Source of the DNA: Nitrosopumilus sp.
GTDB taxonomy: Archaea > Thermoproteota > Nitrososphaeria > Nitrososphaerales > Nitrosopumilaceae
Assembly (NCBI GenBank): GCA_965218785.1
Contig: OZ244650.1
Span: 1,792,001 to 1,856,000, forward strand
DNA length: 64,000 nt
Reading direction: 5' to 3'
The translations under genes and the position numbers were made by a program. Below the pieces are notes generated by a model. The model ran no database searches and was not told the DNA's origin. It saw only the letters and a program-made list of their open reading frames with translations. Below are positions 56,996 through 64,000 of this stretch, in pieces (position 1 is the stretch's first letter; every line of letters begins with the position of its first letter).

Positions 56996-57664
56996 CTACA
57001 TAAAAATGGTTTTTTCGTACTCATATAGCATCCTAGCTACTACAACATGGCCTTCAAAGGATTCATTACCAACAGAATACAAAGTGTTTATCTTGCTTTT
57101 GATTGAATCAGAGAAATTCCCCTTTTGAAATCCTCCAAAAACGATACATGCGTCATCTGAGATCTCTTTTGCAATATTTTCATACGAGTTTGGCGTACCC
57201 TGTGTCGAGAATCCGATAACTCGGGATGGGCGGATTTCATCCAATAGTTCTGAAAAGGATTTTTCTTTAATCTCAAGTAATGTTTCACCGTTTGCCAAAA
57301 TCGTTTTTTCCTGATACAGTTTTTCAATCAAACCCTCAAATCGGTGATATGATTTAGGCACATGCACGTTTTGACCAAAATAAATTATCTTCTCATCAGT
57401 TGTATGAACAAAAAGTTTCATCTTGCTTTGAAGGTATAATGGAATTGTAGTAGCTTCAAGTATTGAAAAGTGGACTAGATCCGGCCGTCCTCTTTTAATT
57501 TCATTTTTAATTCCTTTCATGGCTGCAAAATGCCAGGAATTATCCAGTAAAATTTCTGACGTATGTTTTCCAAGCTTTCTTGCATGTGAAATTACTGACG
57601 GGTGATCACTTAACTCAAAAGGTACCAGTTCTAATGCGGATTCGGATAAAATTATGGAAATCAT
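56996..57664 (-). CDS. nep1: Nep1/Emg1 SSU rRNA pseudouridine methyltransferase
   Basis: ESALELVP, RGRPDLVH, PKSYHRFEGL, GGFQKG. Confidence 0.93.
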   Translation of the reverse strand: MISIILSESALELVPFELSDHPSVISHARKLGKHTSEILLDNSWHFAAMKGIKNEIKRGRPDLVHFSILEATTIPLYLQSKMKLFVHTTDEKIIYFGQNVHVPKSYHRFEGLIEKLYQEKTILANGETLLEIKEKSFSELLDEIRPSRVIGFSTQGTPNSYENIAKEISDDACIVFGGFQKGNFSDSIKSKINTLYSVGNESFEGHVVVARMLYEYEKTIFM

Positions 57665-58794
57665 TAGTTGATCAATTCAATCTGTTTTTTAAATTCATTC
57701 CAGCCTGATTTTGGAACATCATTAACATCTACAAGACCTGCATTGCAGACATAATAATTTAGCCTTTCAATAACGTATTCACTACCACCCAGACCGGAAC
57801 TGCCCCCAACACTAATCTTTTTATCACCAATATCTTGCTGCTCCGTGGCACAGGTACCTTCGGGCCGGTCGTATTGTCTGTACCATGTCAAAAACTCGAT
57901 TTCAGACTCGTTCTCCGAATAAAATTCAAATAATTCCATCAAAAAGTCCTTTTGGGAATCTGTACTTCCACCTATAAAGTCAGACGTACTCCAACTGACC
58001 TCAAAAAATCCCACCTTTTTATTTGGCACAATCTCAAATGCCCTTTGCAAATCCTCCCTGCTCTCTTGAGGGGTGTTTACAATATCATTTAGGTTGTCAA
58101 CTGGAAAGTATGAAAATGCAACAAAATCACCGATGATTAAATCATCAACAATATGTGTCAGTTCTTTATTTAATACATGATGTAATGCAAATGAATTTCC
58201 AAGCTTCACATCGGGGTGTTTTTCCTTTATTTTTTCATAAACTCCAGAAAATAATTCCTTGTATACAGGAATGTTTTGTTCATGGTAGCGAAATTGGGAT
58301 TCTGTCTCACCGGCAATGATTACGGTATCTATGATGTGATATCGTGAAAGAATCGCATCAAGTACGCTGACGAGTCGTTGCTGGTCTATGGAATTAAGGG
58401 ATGGTCTTCCAATCCAATCAGGAAATGGACCTAGCGTTTCCCCGTTAATTACCGAGAAGAACAGTGTTACTTTTAGATCATTTTTTTCATTTAATCCCAT
58501 CAACACATCTGACTGTCTCCAATCAAATTCCCCTTTTTGAGGTTCAACTAGATTCCAAAATAGATACACGTTGTTTCGACCTATTCCAGATGATGCCGCA
58601 TCTGAAAAAACCTCGTCAACTCGTTGTAGTGATACTGACTGGTTTGACGTATTAATTACAAGGCCGATTTTTTCATTTTTTGTAATATTGAAAGTTTCCG
58701 AATCTGGCAAATCAGATGTGACAGATAACAAGACAGCAGCAGATGCTATGCCCATAATTACACCTGCAATTACGCCTGCGATCTTTTGGTTCAT
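57664..58794 (-). CDS. membrane-anchored clan GH-A-like TIM-barrel glycoside hydrolase homologue
   Basis: N-terminal TM helix; W..VEP.KGEFDW..D; AGETE and FFEVSW putative catalytic glutamates; FSYFP. Confidence 0.65.
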   Translation of the reverse strand: MNQKIAGVIAGVIMGIASAAVLLSVTSDLPDSETFNITKNEKIGLVINTSNQSVSLQRVDEVFSDAASSGIGRNNVYLFWNLVEPQKGEFDWRQSDVLMGLNEKNDLKVTLFFSVINGETLGPFPDWIGRPSLNSIDQQRLVSVLDAILSRYHIIDTVIIAGETESQFRYHEQNIPVYKELFSGVYEKIKEKHPDVKLGNSFALHHVLNKELTHIVDDLIIGDFVAFSYFPVDNLNDIVNTPQESREDLQRAFEIVPNKKVGFFEVSWSTSDFIGGSTDSQKDFLMELFEFYSENESEIEFLTWYRQYDRPEGTCATEQQDIGDKKISVGGSSGLGGSEYVIERLNYYVCNAGLVDVNDVPKSGWNEFKKQIELIN

Positions 58795-58839: not shown

Positions 58840-61491
58840 TTATCCGGAGGTACAACCGCTGTATCCGCATTCAATACAGATACTGCATCCTTCCACAAAG
58901 ACCAGGTTGTTTTTGCAGGTTGGACATAAGCGGTCCTCTGAGACATTATCCTGTTTTTGAGGTTCGACTTTGATCTCTTCATCGTGCACTTTAAGCGCAA
59001 GCGCGGCATTTACCTGGGATTTGATATACGGATTTGTGATGTGTTTCTTCACATAATCAGTAATGTACTCAGTTGGTAGAACCTCGAATGTTTTTTCTGC
59101 ATTTTGACTTGTCATGTGAAGTACCTGTTTATGTCTAGAGCCATCACGGTATACGGTGATTCCCTTGAGTCCCATCTCATGTGCTAACAGATATGCAGAT
59201 TTTACATCCTCTGCAGTTACATCGTATGGCATGTTGATTGTTTTTGCAATTGCATTTCCAATCCATTCCTGCCATACACCCTGGGCCATAAGATGATCAG
59301 CCCAGTGGATATCCATTGCCGTAACAAAGACATCTTGCATCCATTGTGGGATCTCTGGGATTCCCTTCAATGAGCCATAGTTGTCAGCAATCTTTTCAAG
59401 AATTTCATCGTTGTAAATATGATTTTCTTTCAGGACTTCCTCAACTATCTTGTTTGTATAGAAGAACCTTCCAACAGTTACTCTCTTTTCAAATACAAGG
59501 GCAAATGTAGGTTCCATTCCGTTTGAACAGTCAGCAATCATGGATAGTGTGCCAGTTGGAGCGACTGTGGTTGCCAGGACGTTTCTGATACCATATTTTT
59601 TGATTTTTTCAATTAATGCATCCCATTCGTAAGAGTGGAATTCCTTTGGTTTCTCATAGTATCCTGCCACCGGAATCTTTCCTTCCGGATATTCAGTCTT
59701 TGAACAAAGTGGGAACTCGCCGCGGGATTTGGCAAGGGCGACACTTTCTTCCATGGAATAATACGTCAGGGCCTCGGCCAGTTTTGATTGCAGATCATAT
59801 CCTTCTTTGGAATTGTATGGAATTCTTAGCTTGTACAGGAGATCTGCTACTCCCATGACTCCAAGTCCGATTCGTCTGGATTCCTTTGATGCCACGTTGA
59901 TTTCTTTGACAGGATAGGTATTCACATCAATGATGTTATCGAGGAATCTTGTCGTCTTTCTGATGGTCTCCTCATATCTTTGCCAATCAAATTCAAAAGT
60001 TCCATCTGCCTGTCTCTTGACAAGATTTACCAGGTTGATGGATCCCAGATTGCATGATTCGTATGGATAAAGACTCTGTTCGCCGCAGGGATTTGTTGCT
60101 CGTAGTGGTGCCTGTCTAGCTTTTGCAAACACGTTGTATTTGTTAATTTGATCAAAGAAGATCAATCCGGGTTCTGCGCTTTTCCATGCAGATAATGCAA
60201 TCAGATCAATTAACTGATGTGCGCTGATTTCTTTAACCGGTTTTTTGTCACGCGGACTGCGTAAAACATAGCTGCCATCTGTGGTATTGACAAGTGAGTG
60301 CCAAAAGTCCTCCCAGATACCAACACTTACGTTAAAGTTTTCCAAAACGCCCGGTTCTGTTTTGTTTGTGATGAATTTCTCAACATCAGGATGCCATGCC
60401 TCAATAATGCCCATGTTTGCACCGCGTCTTTTTCCCCCCTGCTTTACAACTTCAGTCACGGTATTGATGATATTCATAAATGATACCGGACCGGATGCTA
60501 CACCAGAGGTTGATGCGACAATATCGCCTTCCTCTCGTAGATCAGAGTAGTTAATTCCCACTCCTCCTCCGGATTTGAAGATCAATGCCGCATCAGAAGT
60601 CGACTTCATGATTTGTTCCATGCCGTCTTCCATTCCAAGTACAAAACAGGCTGAGAGTTGTCCCAGTCTTCCACCGGCATTCATCATTGTTGGCGAGTTT
60701 GGCAAAAAGTCCTGTGATGTCATTAGCTCAAAGTACTCTGTTATTTTGTCTTCATAACTATCAAGATTCTTTGCCGCCAACAACATCAGAAGATCCTTGA
60801 AACTAACTTTCATCTGGTTTTTCTTTGCAAGTGCCACATAGTGGTTGATCAAAGATCTAAAATGCCACTTGTTGAGATAGTAATTTCCCACCTTGAATTT
60901 ATAATCAAACGCATCTAGTTTTTCAAGATAAGACTGTGCTTCGTCTATATCTTGTGCTGTGGTTCCAGATTTGTCAAAGATTTGTGAGTCATAGAGAATA
61001 TCACCGATTCCGACTAGAATTGCGACTCTTTCAAACATTTGTGTAGGGGACTCTATGATCTCATTTTTGCCATTTCTGAAAAGATATCTTGATGCCAAGA
61101 CTCTCAGGCAGTTCAGGTCAAACTTTTTAGAAACAGGATCAAGGGACTTTAGATTCAGGATCCTCATTTTTTCGACCCTTAGTTTTCTTCTCTCCTGTCT
61201 ATACAGGATAAACGCTTTTGTTATATCGATGGGGCCGCTACTCATCAGGGTTAACTCTACCATATCCTGAATGTCCTCGACAGTAGGTGCCCTAGAGCTG
61301 GTAAATCCCTGTTCTACGAGTTTGTCAACTACGTTATCTGCGAGTTGATCGGCTAGACCACGATCGGCTTTAGAGGTGGCTGCCAATGCCTTGAAAATGG
61401 CATTTGAAATTTTGTCTTTATTAAAAGCCGTTACTGCACCACTGCGCTTACGGATTTCGTTGATAGTACTTTCTATTTGTGAATTATCCAA
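58840..61491 (-). CDS. nrdJ: class II adenosylcobalamin-dependent ribonucleotide reductase with N-terminal ATP-cone
   Basis: IRKRSG ATP-cone, PNSPT, LSACF, RRGANMG, TNPCGE, SCNLGS, APTGT, C-terminal Cys cluster. Confidence 0.96.
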   Translation of the reverse strand: MDNSQIESTINEIRKRSGAVTAFNKDKISNAIFKALAATSKADRGLADQLADNVVDKLVEQGFTSSRAPTVEDIQDMVELTLMSSGPIDITKAFILYRQERRKLRVEKMRILNLKSLDPVSKKFDLNCLRVLASRYLFRNGKNEIIESPTQMFERVAILVGIGDILYDSQIFDKSGTTAQDIDEAQSYLEKLDAFDYKFKVGNYYLNKWHFRSLINHYVALAKKNQMKVSFKDLLMLLAAKNLDSYEDKITEYFELMTSQDFLPNSPTMMNAGGRLGQLSACFVLGMEDGMEQIMKSTSDAALIFKSGGGVGINYSDLREEGDIVASTSGVASGPVSFMNIINTVTEVVKQGGKRRGANMGIIEAWHPDVEKFITNKTEPGVLENFNVSVGIWEDFWHSLVNTTDGSYVLRSPRDKKPVKEISAHQLIDLIALSAWKSAEPGLIFFDQINKYNVFAKARQAPLRATNPCGEQSLYPYESCNLGSINLVNLVKRQADGTFEFDWQRYEETIRKTTRFLDNIIDVNTYPVKEINVASKESRRIGLGVMGVADLLYKLRIPYNSKEGYDLQSKLAEALTYYSMEESVALAKSRGEFPLCSKTEYPEGKIPVAGYYEKPKEFHSYEWDALIEKIKKYGIRNVLATTVAPTGTLSMIADCSNGMEPTFALVFEKRVTVGRFFYTNKIVEEVLKENHIYNDEILEKIADNYGSLKGIPEIPQWMQDVFVTAMDIHWADHLMAQGVWQEWIGNAIAKTINMPYDVTAEDVKSAYLLAHEMGLKGITVYRDGSRHKQVLHMTSQNAEKTFEVLPTEYITDYVKKHITNPYIKSQVNAALALKVHDEEIKVEPQKQDNVSEDRLCPTCKNNLVFVEGCSICIECGYSGCTSG

Positions 61492-61526
61492 TTATAATCT
61501 CCACGTAAGGGGTATGATGAATGTGG

Positions 61527-61598
61527 TTATAACTGATTCTGAAATTAATTCCTCAGCAACGGTTCAATAATATTGACATCGCTACTATGAAGTTCATA
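61527..61598 (-). promoter_or_regulatory. putative nrdJ promoter (TTATAA) with two upstream 13-bp palindromes
   Basis: TTATAA at 61527-61532; TCAATA-A-TATTGA at 61564-61576; TATGAA-G-TTCATA at 61586-61598. Confidence 0.45.
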
Positions 61599-61693
61599 CC
61601 GGCATAATTTTAAGGATGTACGATGATCGCTAGATCTGAAAGTGATCCAATAGTTTGGAAAAATGATCGTAACTAGTTTCACTTTCACGAATT

Positions 61694-63787
61694 TCAGACG
61701 ATATATGGCGACTTGCACTGTGGGCACTTGTCTTCAAATGGCTCGTCTTTGAAACCACACTCGCCACATATTGCAATCCTCTTTACAGGCTTGAAGGAGG
61801 GGGTAAGGGCGGCTGTCTTTTCAATTGATTTTTTGATTAAATCGACCTTTGTGTCGTTGTCAATATTTAGTGTCACGAGTAATCCCCCATTGAGCAGCTT
61901 TGATAGCTTGTTACACTCTGAGATGGATTCGCTCTTGCTGGTATAATCGGCGACTTTGGATGCGTTAATCACCACGCCCTCAGAATAAGAATCACTTTCC
62001 ATTGAGTTGAGGGCAGAATTCTTGCCATATTTCTCGCCGTCTAGACTGGCAAAACGGTGTGAGCCCTCAGTTTCAATCATGGAAATAGTTACAGGATCGC
62101 CTAGTTCCTTGCCTTTCTTGGCTGCAACATCGACTGCAGTCTCGATGACTTTGTGAAGAATGTTACGACCTTCTTTGTTGTCTGGGAATCCAAGTATGTT
62201 AAAGACTGCTTCTTTGAGTCCCACCAAGTTTACAACAAGAGAGACAGAACTTCTTTGCATGTATTGTGTATTTTTTGCAAGAATTGGATTTAGTCCCCTC
62301 CTAGTAAGATCGGAAATATCTTTTTTTCTTAATGCCATTGAAGATAGTGCGGGTTTCATTAGTAATGCAAGTCTTGCTCTAAAGTAAGTTTCATCCTTGT
62401 TTGATTCAAAAGCAAGACGTGGAAGGTTTATGGAAACTGATTGCAGTGTTATTGAAAGTGAATCACTGTTCTTTGTAGAACCGTTTGTGACGCCATAGCT
62501 AGATATCTGACCTTTGGCAAACATTATTTTTCCACCAAGTGAGAATATTTCAGCAGCTGATTCTGAAACATCGGTAATCTTTCCCTTTTCGTGATCTATA
62601 ATCAGACCGATTTTTGGAACTGGTGTTATCTTTGTATAATTTTTGTATGCATTGATAATTGAATTGATTATTTTTGTGTCAGAGCCCAGTTGTAATCTAA
62701 TTGATATGTTGGTACTTGTTTTGTTGTATTTGGAGGTTGTAGATGCAGTTGCAAACGCATTAGTCAGTTTTTGTTCGAGTTCTGGGAGGGATTTTGAGTG
62801 TTTTGCAAACAATGAAACTAGTCCATCAAGTACAATTTCTTGTGAGGCCTCCTTTGAGAGAAGGGAGATTACGATGGATAATGAGCTTGTAATTTCATCA
62901 AGTTGTTTGGATGCAGGAATTCGTGATACATCGAGGTATTTTCCGCCAAGATCAATTCCATTTTCAATCAGTTCTTTAACGTTGACAAATACTGTATCGG
63001 GAATCATAGACCAGATTCCGGGATTGGTAATATGCAAGTCTCCAGAAAGATGCGAGTCTGCAACGTCTTTTGGTAGGATGTTAGTAAGTAGTTGTTCTGC
63101 AAACACTCTCTGTCCTGCGTTAAACAAAAGACCCTCAGCACCATTATCTATGTTATCTAGGTTTGACATCATCTCTTTGACGTCATTTACAGGCATGCCT
63201 AGGCGTGCAAGCTTGTTTCTATATTCCTCATGACCGTGTTCTAGGAGAACAGAGTTTACCATTTCTCGAATAAGCGAGCCTGTCAGATAGGTAGTCTGAT
63301 ATTTGTAGATTCTATTTTCCACCTCTTCAGTAATTTTTTGCGCAAGTTCCAACGGAAGGCTTCCCTCACGAACCAGCGATTGGATGATTTTATGGGAGTT
63401 AAATTCCTCAATGGACTCGTGTGATGTCCTAACATACATTTTTCCACTCTCAATAATTGATCTTTCTTCAATTTGCCGTGCCAGGCTCAAAACCAGCTTT
63501 CCCAGATTGGTAATGGTGTAACGTCTTTCAGATTTGTTGAGTGCAACGAGGGATTGTCTTAGTAATTTTCTCAGGTGGTATGCAAATTTGCCGCTCTCTT
63601 TTTTTGACTTGAAACCGGCCAGGGACTTTAGCTCAGAATAGGTCAAAGGACCCTTGGAATTTAAAATTCGAAGTATGTCTATTCTGTTAGGACTGGCCAT
63701 TACAGAGAAGATCATTCTTACGCGTTTTGATGTGGATTGTAATATTCCGCCTCTCTTTAATTCCGAGACTTCTTCACTTAGTTCCAT
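61694..63787 (-). CDS. ArsR-like winged helix + ATP-cone + degenerate class III RNR (NrdD)-fold fusion protein
   Basis: SPNRIDILRIL..TYSEL..FAYHLRKL..Y.IT.LG; VRTS..EEFNSHKI..IREMV; HLSGDLHI, SINLPRLA, RFASLD..KYG, CGECG..CPQC; no RxxGY glycyl loop. Confidence 0.9.
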   Translation of the reverse strand: MELSEEVSELKRGGILQSTSKRVRMIFSVMASPNRIDILRILNSKGPLTYSELKSLAGFKSKKESGKFAYHLRKLLRQSLVALNKSERRYTITNLGKLVLSLARQIEERSIIESGKMYVRTSHESIEEFNSHKIIQSLVREGSLPLELAQKITEEVENRIYKYQTTYLTGSLIREMVNSVLLEHGHEEYRNKLARLGMPVNDVKEMMSNLDNIDNGAEGLLFNAGQRVFAEQLLTNILPKDVADSHLSGDLHITNPGIWSMIPDTVFVNVKELIENGIDLGGKYLDVSRIPASKQLDEITSSLSIVISLLSKEASQEIVLDGLVSLFAKHSKSLPELEQKLTNAFATASTTSKYNKTSTNISIRLQLGSDTKIINSIINAYKNYTKITPVPKIGLIIDHEKGKITDVSESAAEIFSLGGKIMFAKGQISSYGVTNGSTKNSDSLSITLQSVSINLPRLAFESNKDETYFRARLALLMKPALSSMALRKKDISDLTRRGLNPILAKNTQYMQRSSVSLVVNLVGLKEAVFNILGFPDNKEGRNILHKVIETAVDVAAKKGKELGDPVTISMIETEGSHRFASLDGEKYGKNSALNSMESDSYSEGVVINASKVADYTSKSESISECNKLSKLLNGGLLVTLNIDNDTKVDLIKKSIEKTAALTPSFKPVKRIAICGECGFKDEPFEDKCPQCKSPYIV

Positions 63788-64000
63788 GCATTTTTCTAAA
63801 TGTGGGAGTAAATAAGACTTATGACTAGATCATTTGATATGATTTTTGATCAAATTTGTCATTAAAGAATAATAATTTGTAATATCAGCGATCTAATTTT
63901 AAAAAATTATAAAAGCGATCTTGTTTGGAGATCATTTGGGATCAGTTTTCATGTACATCAAGTGAGAACTCTGATGTAGAAAGTTTTTGTCCACATGAGG

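Follow-up and report, generated by a model that had tools for sequence, protein, structure and literature searches.

In bacteria, NrdR acts as a repressor specific to ribonucleotide reductase (RNR) genes, as set out in the available text of PMC9110341 and PMC12176259; in archaea the transcriptional control of RNR is largely an open question. The trigger enzymes RbkR, BirA, NadR and PutA join a DNA-binding domain to a pathway enzyme, and RbkR, an archaeal fusion of a winged helix-turn-helix (wHTH) with riboflavin kinase, is also present in Thaumarchaeota (available text of PMC5397151). For the class III RNR NrdD of P. copri, the available text of PMC11226230 gives as requirements Cys416 at the finger-loop tip, Cys171 in the first strand and Gly711 in the C-terminal loop, assigns the binding of the substrate triphosphate to an HxHD motif, and has Lys7 and Arg8 of the ATP-cone contact phosphates. 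The gene described here lies in a 64,000-nt stretch of Nitrosopumilus sp. DNA (the window; contig OZ244650.1, positions 1,792,001 to 1,856,000 of the forward strand). Its 697-aa product, a candidate regulator called the regulator below, joins an ArsR-type wHTH and an ATP-cone to a pseudoenzyme of the class III RNR type. A preliminary description made from the sequence of the window had read it as a transcription factor that senses nucleotide pools, and the present analysis favors, with a probability of roughly 0.6, a transcription regulator that arose from a duplicated and inactivated class III RNR and would serve as a nucleotide-sensing switch for RNR genes.

The regulator resembles NrdR in carrying both an ATP-cone and a DNA-binding domain and in its genetic tie to RNR genes of different classes; by analogy with NrdR, the ATP or dATP state of its cone may set promoter binding. 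It differs from NrdR in the use of an ArsR-type wHTH instead of a zinc ribbon for DNA binding, in an additional dead NrdD core of 480 residues, in length (697 aa versus about 150 aa), in the absence of a TIGR00244 match, and in the Lys-Arg pair of the cone, which reads Thr-Ser. With NrdD it is homologous through the core, the zinc ribbon and the ATP-cone, and DAHLSG, NLPR and other motifs are common to both; unlike NrdD, it is without the thiyl-radical Cys, the first-strand Cys, the glycyl-radical loop, the HxHD motif and the activase, and has gained a wHTH. The closest NrdDs are archaeal ones that lie beside it in some lineages. The trigger enzymes likewise have a DNA-binding domain joined to an enzyme but stay catalytically active, whereas here the enzyme part is dead and could act as a sensor or scaffold only. 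Beta-herpesviruses have catalytically dead homologues of the RNR large subunit, which are likewise RNR subunits kept for another role after loss of activity; these, however, are viral members of class I whose action is on host proteins, and they lack a DNA-binding domain.

By the models that define them, the protein is neither an NrdD nor an NrdR, and the family is apparently undescribed. The preliminary description had known of no characterization, and the literature search agreed, in that no account of a wHTH, ATP-cone and NrdD fusion was found in full texts; supplementary sequence lists or omics tables could mention the gene. The available text of PMC3019208, PMC2795772, PMC9669993, PMC9531940 and PMC5397151 does not mention the fusion.

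Domain searches yielded the order of parts that had been read from the sequence, a wHTH followed by an ATP-cone and NrdD landmarks. The Pfam models HTH_20 (residues 30-82, 32.7 bits, cut-off 27), DUF7347 (residues 26-100), ATP-cone and NRDD (residues 445-693, 91.4 bits, cut-off 26.2) all matched; the NCBIfam HTH_metalloreg model stayed under its cut-off (23.7 versus 55). A family profile was built from an alignment of 56 diverse members, which also underlies the AlphaFold model, and its N-terminus weakly matched HlyU, ArsR and NolR chains among the PDB sequences (E 0.003-0.005). The putative recognition helix lies around SGKFAYHLRKL, with Y70 and H71 invariant in the 56 members. Aligned to the cone of NrdJ, the cone of the regulator starts with V-R120-T-S where the usual form is x-K-R-x; R120 is invariant, T121 and S122 occur in 45 and 52 of the 56 members, and Y189, R190 and R195 are nearly invariant. 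The core motifs HLSGDLHI, SSYGV, SINLPRLA, RFASLDGEKYG and CGEC...CPQC, and the C-terminal end KSPYIV, are all present in the translation, as previously listed. N454-L-P-R457 and several other core residues are invariant or nearly so among the members.

Descent from a class III reductase was evident at the level of the family. The single protein had no phmmer match among PDB sequences, and NrdD was reached only via the family profile, which matched solved NrdD chains across the core (profile positions ~218-753) with E values of 4.5e-38 for S. thermophilus (9D3X), 5.4e-38 for P. copri (8P23), 2e-35 for T. maritima (4COI) and 2.7e-31 for phage T4 (1H78). These solved chains scored 112-134 bits on the profile, and the archaeal NrdDs that neighbor the regulator in some loci scored 340-507 bits. 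The AlphaFold model of the regulator had a mean predicted local distance difference test value (pLDDT) of 88.8 and a predicted template-modelling score (pTM) of 0.79, and in Foldseek its top 30-odd PDB matches were without exception class III RNRs (E 7.6e-20 to 9e-12, TM-score 0.5-0.65), with class I RNRs and further glycyl-radical enzymes appearing only at about 1e-7. Every NCBIfam NrdD equivalog remained under its cut-off, the best being TIGR02487 with 79.3 bits versus 326.35. In an unrooted FastTree phylogeny with long regulator branches, 41 regulators and 39 true NrdDs of the phylum were split at a single branch with a support of 100.

The residues on which catalysis depends are missing. 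Five cysteines are present in the whole protein (625, 674, 677, 688 and 691) and none in residues 1-624, so that both the thiyl-radical Cys and the first-strand Cys are absent under any alignment. By spacing, the finger-loop tip falls on Val433, which precedes N454 of NLPR by 21 residues, as the Cys precedes the Asn in the phage T4 enzyme; the profile alignment indicates the same place, where the solved chains have their catalytic Cys within an insert. The HxHD motif is replaced by HITN. The chain stops 6 residues past C691, the last Cys of the zinc ribbon, and for this reason the glycyl-radical loop RxxGY is missing, a motif carried by all 39 true NrdDs examined. The absence of the thiyl Cys, of a Cys after the HIHD-like motif and of the glycyl loop, each claimed in the preliminary description, is thus borne out by V433, by the lack of any Cys before 625 and by the end at KSPYIV.

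The same losses were seen across the family when 41 regulators taken from the retrieved loci (the window protein counted) were compared with 9 genuine NrdDs that neighbor them, an alignment with bona fide NrdDs that had been proposed for the Cys and Gly residues. The first-strand Cys was found in 0/41 regulators and 9/9 NrdDs. The finger-loop Cys was found in 2/41 and 9/9, respectively, and in none of the 56 family members at the aligned column. No regulator had a full HxHD, which was kept as HIHD in all 9 NrdDs, and none had SR[IV][TV]GY, present in 9/9 NrdDs, although a minority keep a Gly at the aligned position. Distant members, which are 740-780 aa long, keep a degenerate C-terminal tail aligned to the glycyl loop. 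Not one of the 41 combines the Cys, Gly and HxHD features.

The preliminary description had found no NrdG in the window, and a search of the whole genome (96.97% complete) likewise gave no NrdG activase at cut-off, with best scores of 50.8 versus 131.15 and 36.8 versus 126.1 bits. The best NrdG-like candidate was a 237-aa radical SAM protein that scored highest on QueE models, also under their cut-offs. PF13597 had no second match in the genome besides the regulator, and the genome encodes two ATP-cones only, in NrdJ and in the regulator. With no catalytic Cys, HITN in place of HxHD, no glycyl-radical loop and no NrdG found, the protein is not a class III reductase, and its status as a pseudoenzyme is near certain.

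It is very improbable that the protein is still an enzyme, whether a reductase whose radical is delivered in trans or one whose old barrel catalyzes a different reaction. In favor of this, the model shows the barrel fold with high confidence, the NLPR motif and other core residues are as constant as described above, and among distant relatives a minority hold on to the Gly and two to the finger-loop Cys. Against these points, no member unites Cys, Gly and HxHD, all three are missing from the window protein, the genome search gave no activase, and the core evolves much faster than the N-terminal domains. A decaying pseudogene was also considered and rejected: all full-length copies in the 80 related loci have an unbroken frame, and selection acts on the family.

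The family is large and old, and its conservation is uneven. Among 7999 scored candidates, 4122 homologues were found at E<=0.001, and a protein library clustered at 50% identity contained 1185 representatives at E<=0.001, of which 179 remained at E<=1e-30. The wHTH and cone together (residues 1-215) were matched at E<=1e-10 in 265 of 401 genomes of the phylum and in all 56 of the own family, Nitrosopumilaceae; several families had no regulator match (e.g., 0/16, 0/23, 0/12, 0/15 and 0/12). Identity to the window protein was 0.74 in the wHTH, 0.60 in the ATP-cone and 0.35 in the core for closer members, and 0.33, 0.46 and 0.20, respectively, for distant ones. The wHTH and cone are thus kept far better than the core, as would be expected if selection acts on DNA binding and cone function. 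The helix motif [EDH][AST]G[KR]F[AGV]YHL[RK] was found in at least 595 reference-genome stretches, 593 of which encode a relative. Close homologues are annotated as 'anaerobic ribonucleoside-triphosphate reductase', 'helix-turn-helix domain-containing protein' or 'ArsR family transcriptional regulator'. The first of these labels, which the preliminary description had expected, was found in several sources (others give a helix-turn-helix protein), and it wrongly implies an anaerobic pathway to deoxynucleoside triphosphates (dNTPs) in aerobic ammonia oxidizers.

The main evidence for a role in RNR expression comes from the genomic neighborhood. In the window, the regulator is followed on the same strand, after a gap of 202 nt, by nrdJ, the only working RNR gene of this genome, which encodes a class II, B12-dependent RNR with an ATP-cone of its own (Pfam Ribonuc_red_lgC, 486 bits). 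Linkage was surveyed in the 80 best reference-genome loci, all from Nitrosopumilaceae: all 73 loci with at least 400 nt of downstream flank have nrdJ 3' of the regulator, on the same strand and at a distance of 173-581 nt, and the remaining 7 have at most 389 nt of downstream sequence. The intact nrdJ noted earlier behind the regulator thus has its counterpart in each of these 73 loci. In a second set of 40 loci from other families of the phylum, nrdJ follows in two, both from sister families within the taxonomic order of the window organism, and one more has a fragment of nrdJ at the contig end. Nine of these 40 loci, from two families, carry a genuine nrdD downstream on the same strand, one or two genes away, with a glutaredoxin gene between in five; two anaerobic families thus hold the regulator upstream of a genuine nrdD. 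Linkage to RNRs of two classes across the aerobic/anaerobic divide is the strongest argument for a role in RNR expression. A tie to pyrimidine genes was also seen in the distant set, with pyrB and/or pyrI within ~4 kb of the regulator in 19/40 loci, mostly convergent, and a UMP-kinase-like gene divergent upstream of the regulator in 4/40. In the genome under study pyrB is not beside the locus, and two OTCase-like genes lie at C1:512383 and C1:1877902 (C1 denotes the contig of the window, in contig coordinates).

The model that best accounts for these observations is that the regulator forms an NrdD-like dimer in which the ATP-cone, and possibly also a vestigial effector site, would bind ATP or dATP. 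Binding would shift the cone relative to the core, as in real NrdD, and move the attached winged helices, thereby changing contact with sites in the nrdJ promoter and probably in the regulator's own promoter, so that transcription of nrdJ would track the (d)NTP pool. The regulator's target in anaerobic relatives would be grx-nrdD. Repositioning of the cone in genuine class III enzymes is described in the available text of PMC11226230 and PMC12662201. Predictions of a dimer of residues 14-215 (two copies) scored 0.26, 0.35 and 0.28, the mark being 0.42, and speak neither for nor against dimerization. The V-R-T-S cone start is shared with one group of intact neighboring NrdDs, so the Thr-Ser variant may still work, and nucleotide binding by the cone is plausible from sequence. 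The nucleotide-reading transcription factor of the preliminary description has thus gained in RNR linkage and shared promoter elements; its proposal that the former substrate site takes part in sensing is weakened, because HxHD reads HITN here and is complete in 0/41 regulators. If the model is true, it would be a clear case in which the allosteric apparatus of an enzyme outlived catalysis and took on a new use as a transcriptional sensor, and the fusion, conserved throughout the phylum, is a concrete candidate for the control of RNR in archaea.

Candidate operators were sought in the spacer between the regulator and nrdJ, aligned for 33 sequences (the window and 32 loci). Conserved blocks comprised a TTATA box roughly 40 nt ahead of the start codon, a Shine-Dalgarno-like GGGGAG element, TATGAAnTTCATA, GGTGTCAA...TTGA and several GATC boxes. 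The palindrome TATGAAnTTCATA was exact in 37 of the 73 spacers, had one mismatch in 10 and two in 6, and lay mostly 109-125 nt before the nrdJ start. No regulon emerged for this element, and 9 of its 11 other one-mismatch copies in the genome lie inside genes. The word TGTCAAT was present in 30/73 nrdJ spacers and in 7/9 regions before grx-nrdD of the two anaerobic families, where its distance from the TATA box is similar, compared with 9/243 controls. The extended form TGTCAAT[AT]T occurs at 17 places between genes of the genome, among which no functional pattern was obvious. All candidate sites lie upstream of the putative TATA box, an arrangement that, as judged from sequence, would fit activation or higher-order assembly better than occlusion. 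Together with the nrdJ linkage in 73/73 and the nrdD linkage in 9/40 loci, these conserved elements strengthen the case that the regulator may act in the control of RNR genes.

GATC boxes form the third class of candidate sites. Across the 73 loci, GATC density was 13.1 per kb in the nrdJ spacer and 16.3 per kb upstream of the regulator, compared with 4.4 per kb in the loci overall. The upstream region of the regulator in the window is the second most GATC-enriched of 1040 intergenic regions of the genome (p 2e-3, uncorrected). In an unbiased count of k-mers common to the nrdJ spacer and the regulator upstream region, all top words contained GATC, and TTTTGATC occurred in 38/73 nrdJ spacers and 26/73 regulator upstream regions, compared with 7/157 control intergenic regions of the same loci. 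The first rank among the 1040 regions belonged to the divergent promoter of the RFC small subunit and GINS-MCM genes, with 9 GATC in 133 nt (p 1.2e-7), and a cluster of at least four GATC in 200 nt before GINS was kept in 25 of 30 family genomes (mean 5.9). The clusters at RFC/GINS and at the regulator suggest a replication and dNTP regulon marked by GATC boxes.

On that basis the regulator might govern a wider regulon for DNA replication and dNTP supply, by binding arrays of GATC boxes (often TTGATCA or TTTTGATC) at its own, nrdJ and RFC/GINS-MCM promoters, a reading that was judged unlikely in spite of the two top-ranked regions, the cluster conserved before GINS and the shared k-mers. A D12-class (Dam-like) N6-adenine methyltransferase is encoded in the genome (C1:320259-321011, 222 bits on PF02086), and the boxes may instead be methylation-dependent cell-cycle signals or the sites of another factor. 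Moreover, no enrichment of GATC was seen upstream of distant regulators despite their conserved putative recognition helix, the nrdJ region alone is not outstanding, and related loci are not independent observations. The boldest form of the idea, equally doubtful, would make the dead class III RNR a phylum-wide master nucleotide sensor that couples dNTP supply to replication through the ATP-cone (perhaps the specificity site), the winged helix and phased GATC boxes at its own gene, nrdJ and RFC/GINS-MCM, that is, an NrdR-like role extended to replisome genes.

Ambiguity in the operator evidence also speaks for a different explanation, in which the protein is a nucleotide-binding pseudoenzyme that acts through contacts with NrdJ, NrdD or other nucleotide enzymes and uses its wHTH for protein or unspecific DNA association. 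A large core that is intact in every locus seen would be superfluous in a simple repressor, and the pyrBI synteny is convergent, with no sharing of promoters. However, the wHTH is among the best-conserved parts, its ArsR-like putative recognition helix is rich in basic residues, and the partner RNR switches class between NrdJ and NrdD from lineage to lineage, a change that a link at the promoter accommodates better than a protein interface. Action through protein contacts was rated improbable, slightly below the wider regulon.

Several observations count against a nucleotide-sensing regulator of RNR genes. Both its DNA binding and its nucleotide binding are predictions from sequence, and the canonical Lys-Arg pair of the cone is replaced by Thr-Ser. 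Three candidate operators compete (palindrome, TGTCAAT and GATC) and none is decisive: the palindrome is absent from 20/73 spacers; TGTCAAT is a lead only, because it was chosen post hoc and the loci are related, and it occurs upstream of 0/29 distant regulator genes; the nrdJ spacer alone ranks 19th for GATC (p 0.03), a nominal enrichment; GATC is not enriched upstream of distant regulators; and the boxes may be methylation sites or belong to another system. As to linkage, 14 of the 40 distant loci have no nucleotide-metabolism gene nearby, the usually convergent pyrB demonstrates synteny and no shared promoter, and true NrdD is over cut-off in 76 of 151 sampled genomes, some of which (e.g., G016) carry nrdD away from the regulator. 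Lastly, the regulator is not a simple replacement for NrdR, because the two co-occur in one family. NrdR (TIGR00244) has no match in the genome under study or in any of the 56 genomes of Nitrosopumilaceae, and is over cut-off in 24 of the 401 sampled genomes of the phylum, all in a single family in which NrdR and the regulator are each found in 24/25 genomes.

A complementary distribution of NrdR and the regulator was rejected, as families without the regulator are also without NrdR and one family has both. In that NrdR-bearing family, the wHTH-NrdD-like gene sits elsewhere, with pyrB directly downstream in 3/4 retrieved loci. In three loci (L172, L175 and L177, from genomes G148, G061 and G077, respectively), an nrdR gene and a genuine nrdD share a strand and lie within ~400 nt of each other.

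Features of the regulator locus in the window, with coordinates counted from the first base of the window
Feature	Position	Strand	Basis or remark
Candidate regulator gene (wHTH, ATP-cone, dead NrdD-like core, zinc ribbon)	61694..63787	minus	697-aa ORF, ATG start
ArsR-type wHTH, residues 26-100	63488..63712	minus	HTH_20 32.7 bits, DUF7347 40.7 bits
ATP-cone, residues 117-189	63221..63439	minus	Pfam ATP-cone 36.1 bits, cut-off 25.8
NrdD-like alpha/beta-barrel core, residues ~216-660, catalytically dead	61808..63142	minus	PDB profile match and Foldseek
H252-I253-T254-N255 in place of the NrdD HxHD triphosphate motif	63023..63034	minus	Motif comparison
V433 codon, finger-loop tip where NrdD has the thiyl-radical Cys	62489..62491	minus	21 residues before N454 of NLPR
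Zinc ribbon C674, C677, C688, C691	61715..61768	minus	All four Cys invariant in 56 members
nrdJ, class II (B12-dependent) RNR with own ATP-cone	58840..61491	minus	883 aa, TTG start; TIGR02504 722.5 bits (cut-off 399.95)
TTATAA box (61527-61532) and GTGGAGAT Shine-Dalgarno-like block (61497-61504)	61497..61532	minus	Spacer alignment; putative promoter
Candidate operator, TGTCAATAT box with 13-bp palindrome TCAATAtTATTGA	61564..61578	.	TGTCAAT at 61570-61578; ~47 nt upstream of the TATA-like box
Candidate operator, 13-bp palindrome TATGAAnTTCATA upstream of nrdJ	61586..61598	.	Genome-wide the sole exact copy (0.44 expected)
Four GATC boxes upstream of nrdJ	61625..61668	.	Sequence
Six GATC boxes upstream of the regulator gene	63828..63943	.	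Sequence
53-aa CxxC...CxxC zinc-ribbon ORF, 3' part	63942..64000 (start near 64103, beyond the window; C1:1855942-1856103)	minus	Sequence and related loci

The small zinc-ribbon gene that enters the window upstream of the regulator is likewise a conserved neighbor. In 79 of the 80 related loci, a version of this 53-aa ORF with 66-96% identity precedes the regulator on the same strand at a distance of 65-369 nt; the 80th has just 74 nt of upstream flank, hence no such ORF is visible. This ORF has no family match over cut-off. The small zinc-ribbon gene, the regulator and nrdJ thus form a conserved triad. Directly 3' of nrdJ, a 376-aa ORF (57664-58794, minus strand) encodes a protein with a hydrophobic N-terminus; at E<=0.001 it matches no Pfam family.

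Upstream of 29 distant regulator genes, an unbiased k-mer search yielded only a TTTTTTAAAC(T)A box, which is probably the promoter itself. The RFC/GINS-MCM promoter is located at C1:1766086-1766218, ~26 kb before the start of the window. Of the GATC clusters at other places in the genome, several consist of coding repeats or a tandem repeat. One intergenic tandem array (C1:1741992-1742420), away from cdc6 (C1:8237), contains many GATC, CATATG and TTCATA/TATGAA words, among them TATGAAcaaTTCATA and TTTCATATGAAA. A further seven GATC lie in ~280 nt between a DsbA-like thioredoxin gene and cbtA, which encodes a probable cobalt transporter subunit (C1:970682-970962); this cluster may matter, since NrdJ needs cobalamin.

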